This document shows, one piece after another, positions 262 to 11,872 of a stretch of 11,872 nt of DNA; position 1 is the stretch's first letter, and each line of letters begins with the position of its first letter. Below the pieces are notes generated by a model. It was given only the letters and a program-made list of their open reading frames with translations, had not been told where the DNA came from and searched no databases. The translations under genes and the position numbers were made by a program. Origin of the DNA: a virus; UHGV virus genome UHGV-1566471; one strand, written 5' to 3'.

Positions 262-564
262 GTGCCTCCATTTCCTTTTTCTTCCTGTTCCTGCTGTTAT
301 TTTGATGAGTTGCTTGAACTACTTGGGAAGGCCGCTCAGAGTCGTACGGAAAACTTCCTTAACCGTAAGTTGTATGCAACCGTAGATGACAGGCCTGCGG
401 ATGATCCTGATGGGCTTGTGATATCTGATGATGTGAAGCTGGCGCTCCTGCTACTTGTCAGCCATTTCTACGAAAACCGCTCAACGGTTACAGACGTTGA
501 GAAAATGGAGTTGCCAATGAGCTTTAACTGGTTGGTTGCTCCTTATCGCCTTATACCACTATGA
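262..564 (+). CDS. Phage gp6-like head-tail connector protein, probably 5'-truncated or disrupted (recognisable part starts about nt 304)
   Basis: C-terminal 85 aa (DELLELLGKAAQ...LALLLLVSHFYENRSTV...LVAPYRLIPL) fit the gp6-like connector pattern. The first 14 codons (PPFPFSSCSCCYF) are read from the pyrimidine-rich upstream region of the minus-strand gene and lack the usual N-terminal motif. In-frame starts are only GTG 262 or TTG 310, neither with a convincing RBS. Stop overlaps the next start (ATGA at 561-564). Confidence 0.55.
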   Translation: MPPFPFSSCSCCYFDELLELLGKAAQSRTENFLNRKLYATVDDRPADDPDGLVISDDVKLALLLLVSHFYENRSTVTDVEKMELPMSFNWLVAPYRLIPL

Positions 565-971
565 AAATTCGTCAGGCGCAGACCAGCGCAACCTACATTC
601 TGCCTGACCCAGGCGAGCTGAATAAACGCGTCCTGATCCGCCAGCGGGTGGATATGCCCGCGGATAACTTTGGCGTGGAGCCTCAATACCCGGTTACGTT
701 CCGGACATGGGCGAAGGTTATCCAGACCAGTGCCACCACCTGGCAGGAAACCGCGCAGACCGGAGATGCCATCACCCATTACATCACCATTCGTTACCGC
801 CGGGGGATCACCGCTGATTATGAGGTGGTCTGCGGTGACAGTGTGTACCGGGTGAAACGTCAGCGCGATCTGAACGGGGCGCGGCGCTTTCTGCTGCTGG
901 AGTGTACGGAGCTGGGCGAATGTAGGCAGAGTCACGGAGGCAACAATGACGACTTCCTTTTTGCACGTTGA
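561..971 (+). CDS. Phage head closure / head-tail adaptor protein
   Basis: 136-aa ORF, ATG overlapping the upstream stop (ATGA), position directly after the gp6-like connector; translation consistent with head-tail joining family proteins. Confidence 0.75.
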   Translation: MKIRQAQTSATYILPDPGELNKRVLIRQRVDMPADNFGVEPQYPVTFRTWAKVIQTSATTWQETAQTGDAITHYITIRYRRGITADYEVVCGDSVYRVKRQRDLNGARRFLLLECTELGECRQSHGGNNDDFLFAR

Positions 972-1452
972 TTTTCAGCAGCCCGCGGAGATGCGCTTTA
1001 ACCGCGCCCGTGTCCGGCGGGCGTTTGTCACGATTGGTCAGCGTCATATGCGTGATGCCCGTCGGCTGGTGATGCGCCGTGCACGGTCGGCACCGGGTGA
1101 AAACCCCGGTTATCAGACCGGACGCCTGGCTCGTTCGATTGGTTACATGGTACCCAGAGCCAGTAAACATCGCCCTGGTTTTATGGCACGTATAGCCCCT
1201 AACCAGCGTAATGGAGAGGGAAACCGCCGTATCAACGGTGATTTTTATCCGGCTTTTTTGTTCTATGGCGTGAGGCGAGGGGCAAAGCGTCGTCGCAGCC
1301 ATCATCGTGGTGCATCCGGTGGCAGCGGCTGGCGACTGGCTCCACGTAATAACTTTATGGTGGAAACGCTTGAAAAGAACCGCAGCTGGACACGCTATTT
1401 TCTGGCGCGGGAATTGCGTAAATCACTGAAGCCGGAGCGACGACACAGATGA
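946..1452 (+). CDS. HK97 gp10-family phage protein (tail completion / neck)
   Basis: 168-aa basic protein; GGAGG 8 nt upstream of ATG 946; motif LARSIGYMV...ARIAPN...YPAFLFYG resembles the HK97 gp10 family; overlaps upstream gene by 26 nt. The long antisense ORF 808..1305 is R-rich and judged spurious. Confidence 0.75.
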   Translation: MTTSFLHVDFQQPAEMRFNRARVRRAFVTIGQRHMRDARRLVMRRARSAPGENPGYQTGRLARSIGYMVPRASKHRPGFMARIAPNQRNGEGNRRINGDFYPAFLFYGVRRGAKRRRSHHRGASGGSGWRLAPRNNFMVETLEKNRSWTRYFLARELRKSLKPERRHR

Positions 1453-2009
1453 AACTGACGCCTGTTATTGCTGCGCTGCGTGCCCGCTGCCCGTATTTTG
1501 AAAACCGGGTGGCAGGCGCGGCACAGTTCAAAAATCTGCCGGAGGTCGGAAAGCTGAGACTCCCGGCGGCGTATGTGGTACCGGGTGATGACTCTCCGGG
1601 AGAAAACAAAAGCCAGACCGACTACTGGCAGGAGCTGAAAGAGGGTTTCTCCGTGGTTGTCATACTGAGTAACGGGCGTGATGAGCGCGGTCAGTTTGCC
1701 TCGTATGATGTGGTGGACGATGTCCGGCAGATGCTCTTTAAGGCTCTGCTGGGCTGGAACCCGGAAGCGTGCGGTAACCCGATTACCTATGACGGCGGCA
1801 CGCTGCTGGATCTGAATCGTCATGAGCTGATTTATCAGTTCGATTTTTCGGTCATCAGCGAGCTGACCGAAGACGATACCCGCCAGCAGGATGACCTGAA
1901 CAGTCTGGATGAACTGCGAACGCTGGCGATTGATGTTGATTATCTCGATCCCGGTAACGGGCCTGACGGCGATATCGAACATCACACCGAAATAACCCTT
2001 CCTTCCTGA
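1449..2009 (+). CDS. Mu gp37-like (DUF1834-type) virion morphogenesis protein
   Basis: 186-aa acidic protein MKLTPVIAALRARCPYFENRVAGAAQFKNL...; ATGA start/stop overlap with upstream gene; sits immediately upstream of the DUF2635-sheath-tube block as in Mu-like tail modules. Confidence 0.7.
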   Translation: MKLTPVIAALRARCPYFENRVAGAAQFKNLPEVGKLRLPAAYVVPGDDSPGENKSQTDYWQELKEGFSVVVILSNGRDERGQFASYDVVDDVRQMLFKALLGWNPEACGNPITYDGGTLLDLNRHELIYQFDFSVISELTEDDTRQQDDLNSLDELRTLAIDVDYLDPGNGPDGDIEHHTEITLPS

Positions 2010-2017
2010 GGATCCTC

Positions 2018-2188
2018 ATGTTTGTGAAACCTGTTAAAGGGCGGTCAGTGCCTGACCCTGCCCGCGGCGACCTTTTGCCCGCCGAAGGGCGAAATGTTGA
2101 CGAGAACAACTACTGGCTGCGCCGTGAAGCAGCGGGTGATATCCGGCGCGTGAATAAAAAGGTGAATACCGATGACGATAAGCTTTAA
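2018..2188 (+). CDS. Small Mu gp38-like protein (DUF2635-type), 56 aa
   Basis: Not in the ORF track (below 60 aa). ATG 2018 preceded by GAGGA; translation MFVKPVKGRSVPDPARGDLLPAEGRNVDENNYWLRREAAGDIRRVNKKVNTDDDKL; overlaps the sheath start by 17 nt; conserved position just upstream of the sheath gene. Confidence 0.6.
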   Translation: MFVKPVKGRSVPDPARGDLLPAEGRNVDENNYWLRREAAGDIRRVNKKVNTDDDKL

Positions 2189-3668
2189 CACCATTCCGTC
2201 GAATACGCTGGTTCCGTTGTTTTATGCGGAAATGGATAACCAGGCGGCGAATACTGCACAGGACAGCGGAGCATCGTTGCTGATTGGTCACGCCAATAAC
2301 GGTGCAGAGATTGTTGCCAACAGTCTGGTGCTGATGCCGTCGGCAGACTATGCACGCCAGATTTGTGGTGCGGGAAGTCAGCTGGCGCGTATGGTCGAGG
2401 CTTATCGCCAGACCGACCCGTTTGGCGAGCTGTATGTGATTGCCGTTCCGGAAGCCGCAGGCGCGGCGGCAACGGTTACTCTGACGGTGACCGGGGCGGC
2501 AACCGAAACCGGCACGGTGAATGTGTATGTGGGACATACCCGCGTGCAGGCACCGGTGACCAACGGCGATAACGTCGCGACGATTGCCGGCAGTATCCAG
2601 GATGCCATCAATGCCGTTCCGGCCCTGCCGTTTACGGCCTCATCTTCGGCTGGCGTGGTCACACTGACCGCGCGTCATAAGGGACTTTGCGGGAATGAAA
2701 TTCCTGTCAGCCTCAATTACTACGGCTTTGGTGGGGGCGAAGTGCTGCCAGCGGGTGTACAGATTGCTGTGGCGACGGGTACCGCCGGAACGGGCGCTCC
2801 TGTTCTCACCGGTGCGGTGGCTGCAATGGCGGATGAGCCGTTTGATTATATCGGCCTGCCGTTCAACGACACGGCCTCCGTTAACACGCTGGTGACCGAG
2901 ATGAACGATACCAGCGGTCGCTGGAGCTATGCGCGTCAGCTGTATGGTCATGTGTATACGTCAAAGACCGGTACGCTGTCAGAACTGGTGACCGCAGGTG
3001 ACCAGTTTAACCAGCAGCACATTACCCTGGCGGGGTACGAAAAAGAAACCCAGACACCTGCCGACGAGCTGGCGGCAAGCCGTACCGCCCGCGCAGCGGT
3101 GTTTATCCGCAACGATCCGGCACGTCCCACGCAGACCGGTGAGCTGGTGGGTATGCTGCCTGCGCCGAAGGGGAAACGGTTCACGATGACCGAGCAGCAG
3201 ACCCTGCTGTCTCATGGCGTGGCAACGGCGTATGTCGAAAGCGGGGTACTGCGCATTCAGCGTGATGTCACCACGTACAGGAAAAATGCTTACGGGGTTG
3301 CGGATAACAGCTACCTCGACAGCGAGACGCTGCATACCAGCGCGTATGTGCTGCGCAAACTGAAATCCGTCATTACCAGTAAGTACGGGCGTCACAAGCT
3401 TGCCAGTGACGGTACCCGCTTTGGTCCCGGTCAGGCGATTGTCACCCCGGCGGTGATCAAAGGGGAACTGCTGGCAACCTACCGTCAGCTTGAGCGTGCG
3501 GGGATCGTGGAAAACTACGAACTGTTTAAGCAGTACCTGGTTGTGGAGCGTGATGCCAGCGATCCGAACCGCCTGAACACGCTGTTCCCGCCTGACTATG
3601 TTAACCAGCTGCGTGTCTTTGCCGTGGTTAACCAGTTCCGTCTTCAGTATTCAGAGGAGTCCGCATAA
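2172..3668 (+). CDS. Contractile tail sheath protein (Mu gpL-like)
   Basis: 498-aa ORF, N-terminus MTISFNTIPSNTLVPLFYAEMDN typical of Mu-like sheath proteins; followed by the tube gene with TAATG overlap. Confidence 0.9.
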   Translation: MTISFNTIPSNTLVPLFYAEMDNQAANTAQDSGASLLIGHANNGAEIVANSLVLMPSADYARQICGAGSQLARMVEAYRQTDPFGELYVIAVPEAAGAAATVTLTVTGAATETGTVNVYVGHTRVQAPVTNGDNVATIAGSIQDAINAVPALPFTASSSAGVVTLTARHKGLCGNEIPVSLNYYGFGGGEVLPAGVQIAVATGTAGTGAPVLTGAVAAMADEPFDYIGLPFNDTASVNTLVTEMNDTSGRWSYARQLYGHVYTSKTGTLSELVTAGDQFNQQHITLAGYEKETQTPADELAASRTARAAVFIRNDPARPTQTGELVGMLPAPKGKRFTMTEQQTLLSHGVATAYVESGVLRIQRDVTTYRKNAYGVADNSYLDSETLHTSAYVLRKLKSVITSKYGRHKLASDGTRFGPGQAIVTPAVIKGELLATYRQLERAGIVENYELFKQYLVVERDASDPNRLNTLFPPDYVNQLRVFAVVNQFRLQYSEESA

Positions 3669-4024
3669 TGGCCCGTATCGGGGGAACCTGTTATTTCAAA
3701 ATTGACGGTCAGCAGCTATCGCTGACCGGCGGCATTGAGGTGCCCATGAACAGGACGGTCAATGATGACATCATCGGCCTGGACGGTTCAGTGGACCGCA
3801 AGGAAACTCACCGTGCGCCTTATGTCAAAGGGACCTTCAAGGTGCCGAAGAATTTTCCGGTGAACAAAATCACCTCGTCTGATGAGATGACAATCACTGC
3901 CGAGCTGGCGAACGGTCAGGTCTATGTACTGTCGTCTGCCTGGCTGCACGGCGAAGCGAACCATAATGCCGAAGAAGGCACGGTCGATCTTGAGTTCCAC
4001 GGTGAAGAAGGGGATTACCAGTAA
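3668..4024 (+). CDS. Tail tube protein (Mu gpM-like)
   Basis: 118-aa ORF immediately after the sheath; GAGGAG upstream; TAATG overlap at both ends; size and position match tube proteins of contractile tails. Confidence 0.85.
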   Translation: MARIGGTCYFKIDGQQLSLTGGIEVPMNRTVNDDIIGLDGSVDRKETHRAPYVKGTFKVPKNFPVNKITSSDEMTITAELANGQVYVLSSAWLHGEANHNAEEGTVDLEFHGEEGDYQ

Positions 4025-4293
4025 TGAAAGAGCTTGAGTTAAAGAAACCGATTACTGCTCATGGCGAGACACTCTCCGTACTGGAGTTTGATGAACCCAC
4101 CGGGAAGGATGTCCGCGAGCTGGGGTATCCCTACCAGATGAATCAGGATGAGTCAGTCAGACTTCTGGCGCATGTGGTGTCGAAATACATTGTGCGGCTG
4201 GCGAAAGTGCCGCAAAGCTCTGTCGACCAGATGTCTCCGGCAGACCTGAATGCAGCGGCGTGGCTTGTGGCTGGTTTTTTCCTCCAGGCCTGA
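4024..4293 (+). CDS. Tail assembly chaperone, short (in-frame) product
   Basis: 89-aa ORF between tube and tape measure genes; its 3' end overlaps a second ORF in the -1 frame, the conserved two-ORF arrangement of tail chaperones. Confidence 0.8.
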   Translation: MKELELKKPITAHGETLSVLEFDEPTGKDVRELGYPYQMNQDESVRLLAHVVSKYIVRLAKVPQSSVDQMSPADLNAAAWLVAGFFLQA

Positions 4294-4442
4294 CGGCTGA
4301 ATACCTCACTGATCGCTTCTTTGACTGCGCCAGCTACTGGCGCATTAATCCTTTCGAATTGCTGAATATGCCGATCAGTGAAATTCCCTTACTGGTCAGT
4401 CAGGCAAACAGGATAGAGCAGGAGAAACGCACACATGGCTGA
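4024..4442 (+). CDS. Tail assembly chaperone, long product by programmed -1 ribosomal frameshift at T TTT TTC (4275-4281)
   Basis: Slippery heptamer T-TTT-TTC in X-XXY-YYZ register of the upstream frame (codons GGT TTT TTC); the -1 frame stays open from 4260 to the stop at 4440-4442, which overlaps the tape measure start at 4435. Frameshifting is predicted, not shown. Confidence 0.55.
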
Positions 4443-6270
4443 ATTTGAGCTTAAGGCGTTGATCACCGGTGTCGACAGGCTTTCTCCCGCGCTGTCGAAA
4501 ATGCAAAAGAAAATCCGGGGATTTAAACGCCAGGCGGAAGAAGCGTCACAGGGTGGGCTGGCGCTTGGTGGCGGACTGGCAGCGGGTCTGACGCTTTCCC
4601 TGAAATCTTATGCCGATCAGGAAAACGCCGCCACCGGGCTGAAAGTCGCCATGATGGATGCGAACGGCGAGGTTGGAAAGAGCTTTCAGGACATCAATAA
4701 ACTGGCTATTGGCCTGGGTAACCAGCTACCCGGTACAACGGCTGATTTCCAGAACATGATGCAGATGCTGGTGCGTCAGGGGATCCCGGCAGAAAACATT
4801 CTGGGTGGTGTGGGTAAAGCGACAGCTTATCTTGCGGTACAACTGAAAAAAACACCGGAAGCGGCTGCTGAGTTTGCTGCAAAGATGCAGGATGCTACCG
4901 GAACGGCGTCAGAAGACATGATGGGGCTGTTCGACACTATCCAGAAGGCGTTTTATCTGGGCGTTGACGATACCAACATGTTGTCCTTCTTCACTAAAAC
5001 CAGTTCTGTTCTGAAGATGGTGAACAAGGACGGTCTTCAGGCTGCACAGAGCCTTGCCCCCATCAGCGTCATGATGGATCAGATGGGGATGAACGGGGAG
5101 TCGGCAGGTAATGCCCTGCGAAAAGTTATCCAGTCCGGATTAAGCGTTAAGAAAATCAGGGACGTCAATAAAGTCATGGCCCGCCAGAAACTCGGGGTAC
5201 AGCTCGATTTTACTGACGGCAAAGGGAGTTTTGGCGGTCTTGATAACATGTTTAAACAACTGGCAAAGCTGCGAAAACTGACCGACGTTAAGCGAACAGG
5301 TGTACTTAAGGCAATATTTGGTGATGATGCCGAAACCCTTCAGGTGGTAAATGCTCTGATCGATAAAGGAAAGGATGGTTACGATCAGATCCAGCAGAAG
5401 ATGAATAAACAGGCCAGTCTGAATAAACGTGTTCAGGCCCAGCTTGGTACGCTGTCCAACCTGTGGGAGGCAATGACGGGGACCGCAACTAACGGCCTTG
5501 CGGCTATTGGCGGCGCATTTTCTGGTGACGCCAAAAATATCACGCAATGGCTGGGGGAGTTAGGGGAAAAATTCACGAAGTTTGCGGATGAAAATCCCCG
5601 GGTTATTCGCGGCGTCGTCGGGCTTGCTGCCGGTCTTGCGATTCTGAAACTGGGATTGATGGGCGTGGGCAGTGCCATCAGTATCGTCAGCAGGATCATG
5701 TCGATGACGCCGATTGGCATGATTGCGACGGCGATTGCCCTGGCTGCGGGATTAATTATCACTAACTGGGATGTTGTCGGACCTTATTTTAAGAAACTCT
5801 GGGAAACCATTAGTCCTTATTTTGAGGCTGGCTGGGAACTTCTGAAGAAGGTTTTTGCCTGGTCGCCGCTGGGGATGGTGATCAATAACTGGGGACCGGT
5901 TGTTAAGTGGTTTCAGGATATGTGGGATAAGCTGAAGCCGATTATTGAATGGTTTACCGACAGTTCCGGTGACACGGTCGATGCCATTAACTCGGCGCAG
6001 TGGGGCGCGGGTGCTTATGATGCTTATGGGACGGGATTCCCGGCGCGGGGATACACACCTTATCCGGCGATGGATCCGGCTCAGGCAAACAACGCCTCCG
6101 ATGCCACAGGCCCGAATCCCTTCATGATTAACAAAGCTTCTGCGCCAAAAGTTGATGGTGAGATCAAGGTCTCTTTTGTGAATTCGCCTCCGGGTATGCG
6201 GGTTATGGAAACGCGATCCAGCGGTTTTGATGTCAGCCATGATGTTGGCTATACGCGCTTTGGCAGGTAA
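4435..6270 (+). CDS. Tail tape measure protein
   Basis: 611-aa ORF directly after the chaperone pair; Gly/Ala-rich, helix-prone N-terminal part and a hydrophobic segment (VVGLAAGLAILKLGLMGVGSAISIV...IATAIALAAGLIITNW) typical of tape measure proteins. Confidence 0.9.
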   Translation: MAEFELKALITGVDRLSPALSKMQKKIRGFKRQAEEASQGGLALGGGLAAGLTLSLKSYADQENAATGLKVAMMDANGEVGKSFQDINKLAIGLGNQLPGTTADFQNMMQMLVRQGIPAENILGGVGKATAYLAVQLKKTPEAAAEFAAKMQDATGTASEDMMGLFDTIQKAFYLGVDDTNMLSFFTKTSSVLKMVNKDGLQAAQSLAPISVMMDQMGMNGESAGNALRKVIQSGLSVKKIRDVNKVMARQKLGVQLDFTDGKGSFGGLDNMFKQLAKLRKLTDVKRTGVLKAIFGDDAETLQVVNALIDKGKDGYDQIQQKMNKQASLNKRVQAQLGTLSNLWEAMTGTATNGLAAIGGAFSGDAKNITQWLGELGEKFTKFADENPRVIRGVVGLAAGLAILKLGLMGVGSAISIVSRIMSMTPIGMIATAIALAAGLIITNWDVVGPYFKKLWETISPYFEAGWELLKKVFAWSPLGMVINNWGPVVKWFQDMWDKLKPIIEWFTDSSGDTVDAINSAQWGAGAYDAYGTGFPARGYTPYPAMDPAQANNASDATGPNPFMINKASAPKVDGEIKVSFVNSPPGMRVMETRSSGFDVSHDVGYTRFGR

Positions 6271-6293
6271 TGAAAAATTAATCTGTTAATGAG

Positions 6294-6316
6294 TCCCACT
6301 CCGGTGGGATTTTTTA
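6294..6316 (+). terminator. Possible weak intrinsic terminator or attenuator between tape measure and DNA circularization genes
   Basis: Hairpin TCCCAC (6294-6299), loop TCCG, GTGGGA (6304-6309), followed by a run of six T (6310-6315). Stem is only 6 bp, so at most partial termination. Confidence 0.3.
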
Positions 6317-6330
6317 TGTACGGAGTTTAT

Positions 6331-7659
6331 ATGACGTGGAAAGACAGACTTCAGGACGCGTCATTTCGCGGTGTGCCGTTTAAGGTTGAAGAAGAAAGTG
6401 CGGGAACCGGTCGCCGTGTGGAAACGCACGAATACCCGAACCGCGACAAACCCTATACCGAAGACCTGGGGAAAATCACTTTCCGCCCGTCCATCACGGC
6501 TTATGTGGTGGGAGATGACTGCTTTGACCAGCGCGATCGCCTGATTGACGCGCTGAATAAACCCGGTCCTGGCACGCTTGTCCATCCGACTTACGGTGAG
6601 CTGAAAGCCTGTGTTGACGGGGAAGTTCGGGTCAGCACATCGAAGAGTGAAGGGCGTATTGTCCGCTTTGACCTGAAGTTTGTCGAAGCGGGAGAACTCT
6701 CTTACCCCACATCAGGTGCGGCGACGGCGCAGACGCTGATGTCATCCTGTTCTGCACTGGATGACTGCATCAGTGATAGCTTCAGTGGTTTCAGTATCGA
6801 TGGCGTGGCAGATTTTGTGCAGAACGACGTCGTCGGTAATGCCAGCACAATGCTTGGGTATGTTTCTGATGCGATGAAAGTGGTGGATTTTGCCGTATCG
6901 GATGCCGCCAGGCTGTTGCAGGGGGATATCTCGGTACTTCTGCCGCCGCCATCGTCAGGCAAAAATTTCGTTGAGCAGGTGCAGAAAATGTGGCGTACCG
7001 GGAAACGCCTTTATGGTAACGCCAGCGACCTGGTCACCATGATCAAAACGCTTTCCGGTGTCAGCCTCGGCAGCGATCTGCAACCGCGCGGCGTCTGGAA
7101 AACGGACAGTAAAACCACCGCCACGGCGACGCAGCAGCGTAACGTGGTTGCCAGCACCCTTCGTACGACCGCAATCAGCGAAGCGGCGTATGCCGTCACC
7201 CGATTGCCTGCGCCAACAACTTCCGCGGTGATGCAGAATGCCGCAGTGGGGCAGGCAACAACACCCGCGCAGAGCACCGGCTGGCCTTCTGTCACGCATC
7301 CGGCACTGAACAATGCACCGGCGGTGAAAAACACGGTTGACCTGCCAACGTGGGAAGAACTGACCGACATTCGCGACACACTGAATACGGCAATTGATAA
7401 GGAGTTGTCCCGTACAACCAGTGATGCGCTGTTTCTGGCGCTGCGCCGGGTGAAAGCAGATCTGAATGCGGATATCAACACGCGCCTTGAACAGTCTGCT
7501 CGGATCATTCAGCGCACGCCGGATGAGGTTTTACCCGCGCTGGTGCTGGCGGCGGCCTGGTTTGATAACGCGGCGCGTGACGCGGACATTATCCGGCGTA
7601 ATGCCATTACGCATCCCGGCTTTGTGCCGGTGATCCCTCTGAAGGTGCCAGTGCAATGA
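6331..7659 (+). CDS. DNA circularization protein (Mu gpN / gp43-like)
   Basis: N-terminus MTWKDRLQDASFRGVPFKVEEE matches the DNA circulation protein N-terminal motif. ATG 6331 preferred (GGAG 4 nt upstream); the ORF track start 6289 and ATG 6316 are in-frame alternatives. Stop overlaps the next start (ATGA 7656-7659). Confidence 0.85.
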   Translation: MTWKDRLQDASFRGVPFKVEEESAGTGRRVETHEYPNRDKPYTEDLGKITFRPSITAYVVGDDCFDQRDRLIDALNKPGPGTLVHPTYGELKACVDGEVRVSTSKSEGRIVRFDLKFVEAGELSYPTSGAATAQTLMSSCSALDDCISDSFSGFSIDGVADFVQNDVVGNASTMLGYVSDAMKVVDFAVSDAARLLQGDISVLLPPPSSGKNFVEQVQKMWRTGKRLYGNASDLVTMIKTLSGVSLGSDLQPRGVWKTDSKTTATATQQRNVVASTLRTTAISEAAYAVTRLPAPTTSAVMQNAAVGQATTPAQSTGWPSVTHPALNNAPAVKNTVDLPTWEELTDIRDTLNTAIDKELSRTTSDALFLALRRVKADLNADINTRLEQSARIIQRTPDEVLPALVLAAAWFDNAARDADIIRRNAITHPGFVPVIPLKVPVQ

Positions 7660-8735
7660 ACGACAATGTCACGCTACGGGTAAATGGCCGGGAGTGGAAT
7701 GGCTGGACATCGGTGCGCATCGGTGCCGGTATTGAACGGCTGGCGCGGGATTTCAGTGTGGAGATCACTCGCCAGTGGCCGGGAGATGAGGGTATCACCA
7801 CGCTTCAGCCGCGCATTAAAAACGGTTCAAAAGTGGAAGTGCTGATTGGTGATGAGCTGGTGATCACCGGCTGGGTGGAGGCGACTCCCGTTCGTTACGA
7901 TGCCCGTTCGGTCAGCACCGGTATTGCCGGACGTAGTCTGACGGCTGACCTGATTGACTGTGCAGCCGAACCGACACAGTTTAACGGACGCTCGCTGGTG
8001 CAGATTGCGCAGGCGCTTGCTGCGCCTTTCGGCATTGAGGTGGTGAACAACGGTGCACCGTCGGATGTTATTCCTGATGTCCAGCCTGATCACGGTGAAA
8101 CGGTGATCGAGGTGATCAACAAAATACTCGGTCAGCAGCAGGCGCTGGCTTACGACGACCCGCACGGCAGGCTGGTGATTGGCGGTATTGGCTCAACGCG
8201 GGCACATACCGCGCTGGTACTTGGGGAAAACATCCTTTCCTGTGATACGGAGAAGAGTGTTCGGGAGCGTTTTTCAGTTTACCAGGTGGCGGGGCAGCGT
8301 GCCGGAAACGACGATGATTTCGGTGAGGCCACCACCACCGCGCTGCGGGCCCGCACAGAGGACGCATTTATTGCCCGTTACCGTCCGATGTATATCAGGC
8401 AGACAGGGCAGGCCACGGGGGCAGGTTGTATTGCGCGTGCTGACTTTGAAGCCCGACAACGGGCGGCGCGGACGGATGAAACCACCTATGTGGTGCAGGG
8501 CTGGCGACAGGGTAACGGTACGCTGTGGCAGCCCAACCAGCGGGTGATTGTCTTCGATCCGGTCTGTGGTTTCGACAATACCGAACTGCTTGTCTCGGAA
8601 GTCACGTTTACTCAGGACCAGAACGGCACCCTGACGGAAATCCGTGTCGGCCCACCTGATGCTTATCTTCCTGAACCCGAAGCCCCCGGCGCGCGGAAAA
8701 AGAAAAAAGCCAGAGTACAGGAGGACCCGTTCTGA
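7656..8735 (+). CDS. Baseplate hub / tail protein (Mu gpP / gp44-like)
   Basis: 359-aa ORF, N-terminus MNDNVTLRVNGREWNGWTSVRIG typical of Mu P-like proteins; lysine-rich C-terminus; TGATG overlap with next gene. Confidence 0.85.
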   Translation: MNDNVTLRVNGREWNGWTSVRIGAGIERLARDFSVEITRQWPGDEGITTLQPRIKNGSKVEVLIGDELVITGWVEATPVRYDARSVSTGIAGRSLTADLIDCAAEPTQFNGRSLVQIAQALAAPFGIEVVNNGAPSDVIPDVQPDHGETVIEVINKILGQQQALAYDDPHGRLVIGGIGSTRAHTALVLGENILSCDTEKSVRERFSVYQVAGQRAGNDDDFGEATTTALRARTEDAFIARYRPMYIRQTGQATGAGCIARADFEARQRAARTDETTYVVQGWRQGNGTLWQPNQRVIVFDPVCGFDNTELLVSEVTFTQDQNGTLTEIRVGPPDAYLPEPEAPGARKKKKARVQEDPF

Positions 8736-9283
8736 TGAGGACGATTGAAGCCATGCAGCGACAACTCCTCGGCCTGATTGGGCGGGCCGTGGTGAAAAGC
8801 ATCAGTGCCGCCACGAAATGTCAGACCGTGGATGTGTCCCTGATTGCCGGTGAACCCAAAGCCGGGGTTGAACATCTTGAACCCTACGGTTTTACCGCAA
8901 GGGCAAACAGCGGTGCGGAAGCGGTGGTGTTGTTTCCGGATGGCGACCGTTCTCATGCAGTGGTTGTTACGGTGTCGGACCGGCGCTACCGCCTGAAAGG
9001 GCTGCAGACGGGTGAGGTGGCTGTCTATGACGATCAGGGGCAGTCTGTGACGCTGACCCGGGAGGGGATCGTGGTGGACGGTGCAGGTAAAACGATCACG
9101 TTTCGCAATGCGCCCAGAGCACGTTTTGAAATGGACCTGGAAGTGACAGGACAGGTGAAAGACCTGTGCGACTCCGGCGGCACCACCATGTCAGCGATGC
9201 GGCTTGCCTATAACGGGCATCGTCACAGAGAGAACGGTCAGGGCAGTAACACCGACAAACCTGATAAAGCGATGGAGGCATGA
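8735..9283 (+). CDS. Baseplate assembly protein V / central spike (Mu gp45-like)
   Basis: 182-aa ORF in the position of Mu gp45; translation consistent with gpV-like spike proteins. Confidence 0.8.
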   Translation: MRTIEAMQRQLLGLIGRAVVKSISAATKCQTVDVSLIAGEPKAGVEHLEPYGFTARANSGAEAVVLFPDGDRSHAVVVTVSDRRYRLKGLQTGEVAVYDDQGQSVTLTREGIVVDGAGKTITFRNAPRARFEMDLEVTGQVKDLCDSGGTTMSAMRLAYNGHRHRENGQGSNTDKPDKAMEA

Positions 9284-9708
9284 TGGAACTGTGGCTGACG
9301 GTGAACGGTAAACGCACCTGCGCCAGCGCACAGCTGGATCCGCTGACCCGCGCCGTGGTGATTTCCCTGTTTACCTGGCGGCGGGCGGAGCCTGATGACA
9401 ACGCCGACGTCCCGATGGGATGGTGGGGGGATACCTGGCCTGCGGTACAGAATGACCGTTACGGCTCCCGACTGTGGCTGCTTCAGCGCAGCAAACTGAC
9501 CAATCAGCTGGTGCAGACGGTAAGGGGGTATATCCGCGAATGCCTGCAATGGATGATTGATGACGGCGTGGTGTCCCGTATTGATCTGGATATCCGCCGC
9601 ACCGGGATTAATGAACTGGGTAACAGTATCACTCTCTGGCGTCGTGACGGACCGGTAATGATTTCTTTTGATGATCTGTGGAGTGCGATAACGCATGGCG
9701 GACAGTGA
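9280..9708 (+). CDS. Phage GP46-family baseplate protein (Mu gp46-like)
   Basis: 142-aa ORF, ATGA overlap with upstream gene; conserved position between the gpV-like and J-like genes. Confidence 0.8.
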   Translation: MMELWLTVNGKRTCASAQLDPLTRAVVISLFTWRRAEPDDNADVPMGWWGDTWPAVQNDRYGSRLWLLQRSKLTNQLVQTVRGYIRECLQWMIDDGVVSRIDLDIRRTGINELGNSITLWRRDGPVMISFDDLWSAITHGGQ

Positions 9709-10753
9709 ATTTCAGCGCCCGACGCTGGCAGAAAATATCAGTATGCTCCGTAACGATTTATTCGCCAGGCTGGACGTCAGCGACACGCTCCGGCGCATGG
9801 ATGAAGACGTGCGGGCAAAGGTGTATGCGGCGGCGCTGCATACGGTTTACGGTTACATCGATTATCTGGCAATGAACATGCTGCCTGACCTGTGCGATGA
9901 GTCCTGGCTGGCGCGACATGCTGCGATGAAACGGTGTCCGCGCAAGGGGGCCACGGCTGCCAGCGGGTATATGCGCTGGGAAGGTGTCAGCGATGGCCTG
10001 AAGGTGACCGCCGGGAGTGTTATTCAGCGCGATGACCTGGTTCAGTACACGGCAACTGCCGATGCAACCAGCACCGGTGGTGTCCTGAGCGTGCCGATCG
10101 CCTGCTCAAGTGCAGGCGCGGTCGGTAACGCTGACGACGGTACGTCATTAATCCTGGTCACGCCGGTTAATGGTCTGCCGTCTTCCGGCGAGGCAGATAC
10201 CCTGACAGGTGGATTTGATATTGAAGAGCTGGAAACGTGGCGCGCCCGCGTCATTGAGCGGTATTACTGGACGCCTCAGGGCGGGGCTGACGGGGACTAT
10301 GTCGTCTGGGCTAAAGAAGTGCCCGGCATTACCCGCGCATGGACATACCGACACTGGATGGGAACGGGGACTGTCGGTGTGATGATAGCCAGCAGTGACC
10401 TGATTAATCCCATTCCGGAAGAATCAACGGAAACGGCAGCAAGACAACATATCGGGCCACTGGCCCCGGTGGCAGGCTCTGATTTGTATGTATTCAGGCC
10501 GGTGGCACATACGGTGGATTTTCATATCCGCGTGACGCCGGACACACCAGAAATACGGGCTGCCATTACCGCGGAGTTGCGTTCGTTCCTGCTGCGTGAT
10601 GGTTATCCGCAGGGAGAACTGAAGGTATCGCGTATCAGTGAAGCGATTTCCGGTGCGAACGGGGAATACAGCCATCAGTTGCTTGCACCGGCAGACAATA
10701 TCTCCATTGCAAAAAATGAACTGGCGGTACTGGGGACGATTTCATGGACGTGA
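9695..10753 (+). CDS. Baseplate J-like wedge protein (Mu gp47-like)
   Basis: 352-aa ORF; size and order (gp46 then J-like then gp48-like then fiber) match Mu-like baseplates and the e14 jayE-ymfQ-stfP arrangement. Confidence 0.85.
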
Positions 10754-11328
10754 CAAACGATGATTACATCCGTCTGTTGTCGGCACTGTTGCCCCCCGGT
10801 CCGGCGTGGTCAGCCAGCGATCCGGCGATTGCCGGTGCGGCACCGTCATTAACCCGCGTTCATCAGCGTGCGGATGCCCTGATGCGGGAGCTGGATCCGC
10901 GCACCACCACTGAACTGATAAACCGCTGGGAGCGTCTGTGCGGTCTGCCGGATGAATGTATTCCGGCGGGAACGCAGACCCTTCGCCAGCGTCAGCAACG
11001 GCTGGATGCGAAGGTTAACCTGGCGGGCGGCATCAACGAGAATTTTTATCTTGCACAGCTTGCTGCCCTGGGCAGACCAGACGCCACCATCACGCGATAC
11101 GACAAAAGCACGTTCACCTGCTCATCGGTCTGTACTGACGCGGTGAATGCGCCGGAATGGCGGTATTACTGGCAGGTCAACATGCCAGCCGCCACAAACA
11201 CCACCTGGATGACATGTGGCGATCCCTGTGATTCCGCGCTGCGTATCTGGGGCGACACCGTTGTCGAATGTGTGCTTAACAAACTCTGCCCGTCGCATAC
11301 CAACGTAATTTTTAAATATCCGGAGTAA
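10744..11328 (+). CDS. Mu gp48-like / YmfQ-like tail protein (DUF2313-type)
   Basis: 194-aa ORF overlapping the J-like gene by 10 nt; Cys-containing C-terminus; sits immediately upstream of the tail fiber gene as in e14 and Mu-like prophages. Confidence 0.8.
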
Positions 11329-11331
11329 TCC

Positions 11332-11872
11332 ATGCATCGTATAGACACGAAAACCGCGCAGAAGGATAAGTTCGGCGCGGGTAAAAACGGTTTTACCCGT
11401 GGTAACCCCCAGACCGGCACGCCTGCCACCGATCTGGATGATGACTACTTTGATATGTTGCAGGAAGAACTCTGCAGCGTGGTGGAGGCATCCGGTGCCA
11501 GCCTGGAGAAGGGGCGGCATGACCAGCTGCTTACCGCGCTTCGTGCACTGCTGTTAAGCCGCAAGAATCCGTTTGGCGATATCAAATCGGATGGCACGGT
11601 GAAAACGGCTCTCGAAAACCTTGGTTTGGGAGAAGCGGCAAAAAGGAATGTGGGGACAGAGACAAACCAAATACCAGACATGGCTTCGTTTGCTTCTGGT
11701 CCGGGTTGGATGAAATTTCCATCTGGTAAAATTATTCAGTATGGCTATCATACATCCAGTAACAGTAGTTCAATCATTATTAATTTCCCTATTCCTTTCC
11801 CGACTCAATGTTACGGAGTCACAGGGGGTGGAACAGATGCCAGTGCAGCAAATATTGTAGGTTGCCAGGTCA
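11332..11872 (+). CDS. Tail fiber protein, 5' part (conserved N-terminal domain plus start of AT-rich variable receptor-binding region); runs off the right edge
   Basis: GGAG 6 nt upstream of ATG 11332; N-terminus [48 protein letters not shown] is the conserved N-terminus of StfP/StfE/Mu S-type side tail fibers; open to the window edge (180 codons). Not in the ORF track because no stop is present. Confidence 0.85.
11609..11634. other. Candidate 26-bp crossover site for a Gin/Cin/Pin/Hin-family serine DNA invertase (gix/pix-like), inside the tail fiber gene
   Basis: CTCTCGAAAACC-TT-GGTTTGGGAGAA: imperfect dyad (9 of 12 half-site positions symmetric) around a 2-bp core, with the AAACC/GGTTT signature of hix/gix/cix sites. 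It falls at the codons for ALENLGLGE, where constant and variable fiber parts join in invertible fiber systems, and coincides with a drop in GC downstream. Confidence 0.55.

Follow-up and report, generated by a model that had tools for sequence, protein, structure and literature searches.

A pix-type DNA invertase crossover site in the tail-fiber gene of an SfV-like prophage is probably an orphan relic

The tail-fiber gene at the right end of UHGV virus genome UHGV-1566471 contains a 26-bp DNA invertase crossover site. The whole 11,872-nucleotide stretch that was analyzed is termed the window here. We consider it highly probable (roughly 0.87) that the site is a relic: a pix-type crossover site left as an orphan at a mosaic joint, in an SfV-like, serotype-converting prophage whose fiber tip is fixed. 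An ancestor would have carried a full e14-type invertible segment that was later lost or replaced, and the present lineage would have a single fixed fiber C-terminus and a single assembly chaperone, with an acyltransferase of O-antigen type at the prophage end. Previous work has already established the type of site, its position in fiber genes, the e14 system, and SfV-like prophages. A first-pass annotation of the same DNA is partly supported, in that it correctly recognized a known motif and then over-extended the inference.

The window corresponds to the full length of ENA metagenome contig ERZ1303424 NODE_1983_length_11872_cov_2.30, which has a coverage of 2.3x and a record that ends at position 11872. 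All DNA discussed below as lying 3' of this position was read from 99%-identical relatives, and none of it is in the window's own record. Based on the Pfam families of its called genes, the window contains a Mu-type contractile-tail module. The gene order is tail terminator, sheath (2172-3668), tube, assembly chaperone, tape measure (4435-6270), DNA-circulation protein, gpP-like hub, gp45, gp46, gp47/baseplate J (9695-10753), gp48/YmfQ, and fiber. This is the Mu-like tail and baseplate order expected of an SfV-like prophage, as judged from Pfam and the SfV annotation. The gp48/YmfQ-family baseplate gene (10744-11328, plus strand; PF10076 Phage_Mu_Gp48, E = 8e-27), which is called ymfQ in related E. 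coli records, lies directly 5' of the fiber gene, and the order is that of ymfQ-stfP in e14. The fiber gene itself begins with an ATG at 11332 on the plus strand and runs off the contig end at 11872, so that the first 180 of its 213 codons are present.

Elsewhere in the module, the gap between the tape-measure and DNA-circulation genes (6270-6289) is empty in the window. The same gap holds an opposed gene for an OB-fold protein in E. coli GPEC1405 (L001 3075-3521) and a 176-aa open reading frame in a lineage with a closely related fiber, P0007 (L128 408-938). It appears to be a moron insertion spot. An upstream search with the head-completion protein (window 561-971) returned places with lysis, terminase, and head genes. 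No recombinase was found at the places returned by this query, and the protein is widespread (10,971 index blocks), so these places are not lineage-specific.

The crossover site occupies positions 11609-11634 (CTCTCGAAAACCTTGGTTTGGGAGAA), and its central dinucleotide, TT (AA on the other strand), is at 11621-11622; neither feature is assigned a strand. Half-sites CTCTCGAAAACC and GGTTTGGGAGAA flank the central TT and are imperfectly symmetric, with self-complementarity around it at 18 of 26 positions (9 of 13 pairs). The first-pass annotation had described a 26-bp imperfect palindrome with an AAACC-NN-GGTTT core at these positions, and AAACC-TT-GGTTT is indeed read there. This exact core, AAACCNNGGTTT, occurs once in the window, compared with 0.01 copies expected from 200 shuffles. 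If one mismatch is allowed, the single extra match in the window is AAACCCCGGTTA at 1101-1112. We rejected it as a second site, given that its flanks are unlike those of the 26-bp site, and it is most likely a chance match. No second 26-mer is found in the window at up to eight mismatches. The site is in frame in the fiber gene, where it encodes ALENLGLGE (fiber residues 93-101).

Sites of this 26-bp class, with AAACC-NN-GGTTT and a 2-bp core, are known from the G segment of Mu (gix/Gin), the C segment of P1 (cix/Cin), and the H segment of Salmonella (hix/Hin). In Mu and P1, they lie at the joint between the constant and variable parts of the fiber gene. Hin-family invertases exchange strands at the central 2 bp of the site, and we take the TT at 11621-11622 to be the would-be strand-exchange point in an e14-type reaction. 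These enzymes depend on an enhancer bound by Fis and on the assembly of two sites into a particular supercoiled synapse, and nearby inverted sites are strongly favored. In known systems, the Fis-dependent enhancer is located within the invertase gene, at its 5' end. The Mu, P1, and Salmonella H systems are complete: each has an enhancer and a pair of inverted sites with a serine invertase adjacent, whereas the window has one site.

Positions 11609-11634 have the 26-bp crossover site of a Hin/Gin/Cin/Pin-type segment, and earlier assignment to the hix/gix/cix/pix class can be narrowed to a pix-type member. The window's 26-mer matches the site of e14 stfP (ycfK), that of SfV orf21, and that of CPS-53 yfdL at 26 of 26 positions. 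Judged on sequence, the match to e14 is far beyond chance, and the window's 26-mer can be regarded as a true descendant of a Pin-type (e14 P-segment) crossover site.

In the e14 region of E. coli K-12 MG1655, the site (L005 4779-4804) is inside stfP. Its inverted partner, TTCTCCCAAACCAACGTTTATGAAAA, lies 1.8 kb downstream (L005 6606-6631), inside stfE and directly before pinE. A 2025 study describes a 1797-bp inversion in e14 that is flanked by TTGGTTTGGGAGAAGG and CCTTCTCCCAAACCAA and catalyzed by PinE, PinQ, or PinR (PMC12529663). The three enzymes come from three different K-12 prophages, and all invert the e14 P segment, which means that they act in trans. The published e14 repeat matches the window at 15 of 16 positions. 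Both e14 orientations were also detected in MG1655-derived cultures by a whole-genome inversion screen, in which e14 was the only inverting locus found (PMC4272514). The window resembles e14 in the order of ymfQ (gp48) and fiber gene, in the fiber N-terminus (94.6% amino-acid identity to StfP residues 1-111), and in having the identical site at the same codon position. However, e14 has the inverted partner, opposed tfaE and stfE genes, and pinE, whereas the window's lineage has one fiber C-terminus of another type, one tail-fiber assembly gene (TAP), an acyltransferase, and then the prophage end.

The 180 fiber residues encoded by the window are 100% identical to those of P0001, an E. coli protein of 213 aa whose residues 128-212 form a Pfam Gp53-like_C domain. 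The conserved N-terminal part (11332-11608, plus strand), presumed to attach to the baseplate, is common to e14 StfP, SfV orf21, and CPS-53 YfdL, and this region has 95-98% nucleotide identity to L005, L002, and L004. The start of the variable, AT-richer, receptor-binding part (11635-11872, plus strand) was delimited by GC content and homology end-points. GC content is 55.6% in the conserved part versus 43.7% in the variable part, and 46 of 80 related viral contigs lose nucleotide homology to the window at 11625-11637. Because homology ends there, the site is a mosaic joint for fiber C-terminal cassettes, and its earlier placement at the boundary between a conserved fiber N-terminus and an AT-rich variable part is borne out.

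Among complete E. coli genomes, no record covers at least 80% of the variable part (window 11560-11872). A peptide scan of species-representative genomes for this part gave 211 pattern matches, of which none was confirmed. Salmonella phage PT1 was considered as a guide to the lineage and rejected: it has an 81% match to window 11665-11870, but its fiber is longer and different, and its baseplate context is P2-like and unrelated.

Contigs that encode P0001 (L007-L013) served as reference relatives; 24 were read, representing seven distinct places. They align to window 1332-11872 with 98.9-99.0% identity and no gaps, reaching the last base (L007-L011), and the 238 bp 3' of the site are 99.8% identical to L007. 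All 24 have the same order: the 213-aa fiber gene, which ends 33 codons past the window; a 143-aa Caudo_TAP assembly gene on the plus strand; an Acyl_transf_3 gene on the minus strand (371 aa, GC 32%); a DinI-like gene (minus strand); and host genes. The products were assigned with Pfam. The host genes past DinI are prfC-osmY-ytjA-yjjU-yjjV in most of these contigs and aspS-nudB-yebC-ruvC in L009.

No second site at up to 8 of 26 mismatches occurs within 10 kb on either side in L007-L013. A tblastn search with K-12 PinE gave a best E value of 1.8 in L007-L013 and the window, compared with 1e-123 in e14. Searches of L007 and L009 by tblastn with e14 StfP, TfaP, TfaE, and StfE detected one plus-strand fiber gene and one plus-strand TAP gene, and no opposed fiber or chaperone gene. 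All examined contigs with this fiber cassette have one arrangement only. The first-pass annotation had placed a partner site, alternative fiber and chaperone genes, and an invertase just past the right edge; none is present within 10 kb in the 99.0%-identical contigs. The check it proposed, for an inverted site and a serine invertase in the next 3-5 kb, was made in the near-identical relatives and found neither in any of them, which is the outcome that it had named as refuting its interpretation (neither feature within about 5 kb).

The window would be expected to continue past 11872 as these relatives do. Because the lineage has no inverted partner, no alternative fiber or chaperone, and no invertase, local inversion is impossible in it. 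Moreover, no phase-variable receptor specificity is expected, since a Hin-family invertase needs an inverted partner on the same molecule. The earlier suggestion that this prophage may be capable of such variation is over-extended. Three points weigh against our reading. The absence of partner and invertase is read from 99%-identical relatives rather than from the window's own contig; the site is a perfect copy of the functional e14 site, with no visible decay; and Pin-family invertases of other prophages act in trans, so that they may have some activity on it.

The same fiber, TAP, and acyltransferase layout occurs with two related fibers, P0007 (98% identical) and P0017 of Enterobacter (78-80% identical), in the 24 contigs examined for each. 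No partner site and no Pin were found in loci with these cassettes (L128-L135). The Enterobacter version of the site has decayed to CTCTTTCAAATCTTGGTCTGAAATCT. In the P0007 variant (L128 6278-6303), there is a G-to-A change inside the site (CTCTCAAAAACC...) that converts ALENLGLG to ALKNLGLG. Because this change is non-synonymous, strict constraint acts on neither the peptide nor the DNA site in that orphan lineage.

This type of fiber C-terminus, a 143-144-aa Caudo_TAP, and an opposed 371-aa Acyl_transf_3 gene (GC 32%) are always found together (L007 10001-12240; L128 6001-8240; L132 6001-8246). The trio is kept both in E. coli and in Enterobacter prophages with fibers that are only ~80% identical, and its members appear to be inherited together as a cassette for receptor binding and surface modification. 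The Acyl_transf_3 product probably modifies a surface polysaccharide, with O-antigen acetylation suggested by its family. In the 99%-identical relatives, this gene is the candidate for an O-antigen-modification gene between the fiber/TAP genes and the prophage end, beyond the window's edge. Near-identical prophages reside at no fewer than three chromosomal places: upstream of prfC-osmY (L007, L008, and L010, from 13207 onward), in the aspS-ruvC region (L009, from 13342 onward), and at a third place for P0007. The P0007 variant (L128 8403-11853) occupies the argW site of CPS-53, beside an integrase adjoining yfdC and mlaA.

The frequency with which such sites have partners was surveyed in 80 IMG/VR contigs whose fiber N-terminus is at least 97% identical to that of the window; these were scanned for sites and Pin. 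An inverted partner is present in 38 contigs and absent from 31, and 11 have too little downstream sequence to judge, which leaves 69 informative loci. Among loci with an inverted partner, 16 have it 1.5-2 kb downstream together with a full-length Pin gene, 18 have a partial or contig-cut Pin gene, and 4 have no Pin gene in view. Loci that lack a partner include 25 with no Pin and at least 3 kb of downstream sequence, and 6 with Pin fragments only. In partner-bearing relatives, the e14 segment has homologues in either orientation with respect to the constant part (for example, L071, L079, L080, and L083 versus the opposite in L001, L014, L020, and L040). Because the segment is seen in both orientations, the identical site is active in the partner-bearing half of the family.

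Exact 26/26 sites are found in 30 of the 38 loci with a partner versus 12 of the 31 without (Fisher p = 0.001, for loci that are not phylogenetically independent). This excess fits a relaxed constraint on orphan sites. The window's own cassette is found in none of the 80 contigs, and hence in none with a partner site.

Many relatives have an intact inverted partner and a Pin stub of 44-49 codons (L001 10893-11075, and also L014, L020, L027, L040, L052, L068, L082, and L085). These are decaying systems that could be flipped by the invertases of other prophages. Three short viral contigs have a full-length minus-strand Pin gene (L029 1748-2374, L034 2696-3322, and L081 3196-3828). In these, a pix-like extra site (five mismatches), a fiber-tip fragment, and Pin all lie upstream of ymfQ and the main fiber site. 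This layout may reflect a multi-site arrangement, a pair of adjacent cassettes, or an assembly that passed through an inversion.

Orphan copies are also found in well-studied phages and prophages. SfV, SfI, SfII, SfIV, and CPS-53 have a Mu-like tail module that is 95-97% identical to that of the window, and SfV has 97.4% nucleotide identity to window 4700-11682. SfV and CPS-53, like the window, have the identical 26-bp site alone in the fiber gene and no invertase. In SfV, there is no partner, and the fiber and TAP genes are followed by a terminator and gtrV-gtrB-gtrA. SfV-type phages and CPS-53 have an O-antigen-modification gene between the fiber/TAP genes and the attachment site, which is the position of the candidate gene in the window's relatives. 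However, the window's fiber C-terminus departs from that of the SfV group beyond position 11682, and the putative conversion gene of the window's relatives is an Acyl_transf_3 acyltransferase, versus gtrABV in the SfV group. The CPS-53 copy (26/26) is an orphan in the yfdL pseudogene of K-12 (L139 7884-7909; NC_000913.3 2471883-2471908), and its neighbors are yfdK, an opposed tfaS pseudogene, gtr genes, and intS. The opposed tfaS pseudogene beside yfdK, which is absent from the window's lineage, looks like a remnant of a former invertible segment. Thus, orphan copies are common in this group, comprising 31 of the 69 informative viral contigs in addition to SfV and CPS-53 yfdL.

Under the relic reading, three things account for persistence of the site: the strong conservation of the coding stretch that holds it (ALENLGLGE), its position at the joint where fiber C-terminal cassettes have been swapped in this phage family, and the youth of the lineage relative to its e14-like relatives.

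With the orphan copy in CPS-53, the number of identical or related pix sites in K-12 comes to three, and K-12 also has three Pin genes. An orphan might be used in trans, in which case a Pin-family invertase of a co-resident prophage would pair it with a pix-type site elsewhere, such as that of an e14-like prophage. We regard this as unlikely. An orphan and a complete system do share a chromosome, both in K-12 (e14 and CPS-53 yfdL) and in CP178306.1 and CP178308.1 (L094/L101 and L095/L100). However, the need for a Fis enhancer and a supercoiled synapse favors nearby inverted sites, and the site has decayed in the Enterobacter lineage. The clustering of homology breakpoints at the site in 46 of 80 loci is what exchange there would produce, but descent from local invertible segments combined with homologous recombination in the conserved N-terminus explains it equally well. 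Because Pin-family invertases act in trans, as the shared use of the e14 P segment by PinE, PinQ, and PinR demonstrates, some activity on the orphan site is possible (PMC12529663). Nevertheless, the screen of MG1655 derivatives found the e14 inversion only, despite the presence of the identical CPS-53 orphan in K-12 (PMC4272514).

It is still less likely that the window's phage, unlike its near-identical relatives, carries a complete invertible segment past the contig end. Such segments are present at 38 of the 69 informative loci with the same fiber N-terminus, including e14 and L001, and occur in both orientations there. In addition, the contig ends 238 bp 3' of the site, and assemblies may often break near invertible DNA. 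However, those 238 bp already correspond to one cassette type, given their 99.8% identity to L007, and this type is followed by TAP, the acyltransferase, and the prophage end in all contigs examined (24 each for P0001, P0007, and P0017). No partner site or Pin accompanies the cassette, which is in 0 of the 80 viral contigs. A coverage of 2.3x is enough to account for a contig break, and inversion should break an assembly at the repeat rather than 238 bp past it.

That the palindrome is a coding by-product of a conserved peptide, with no recombination history, is scarcely credible: although it encodes ALENLGLGE in frame within a region of 95-98% conservation, where a 26/26 match to e14 is roughly what conservation predicts, the identical sequence is one of two experimentally defined end-points of the e14 inversion (PMC12529663, PMC4272514), the site in relatives has an inverted partner located next to a Pin gene, with the segment occurring in both orientations, and homology among relatives ends exactly at the site.

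These findings suggest caution in annotation. The presence of a perfect hix/gix/cix/pix-type site in a fiber gene is not sufficient to predict phase-variable host range, and ~45% of such sites in this phage family are orphans (31 of 69 informative loci), among them the sites of SfV and CPS-53. For the window's contig, the relic reading implies a fixed receptor specificity, with the fiber tip and one chaperone (and the acyltransferase in near-identical relatives) inherited as a block. Wider interest attaches only to the low-probability possibility of recombination in trans. If it occurs, then cassettes comprising fiber C-terminus, chaperone, and O-antigen-modification genes would be moved between prophages, or large chromosomal inversions would result, and the ending of homology among relatives exactly at the site would be explained.
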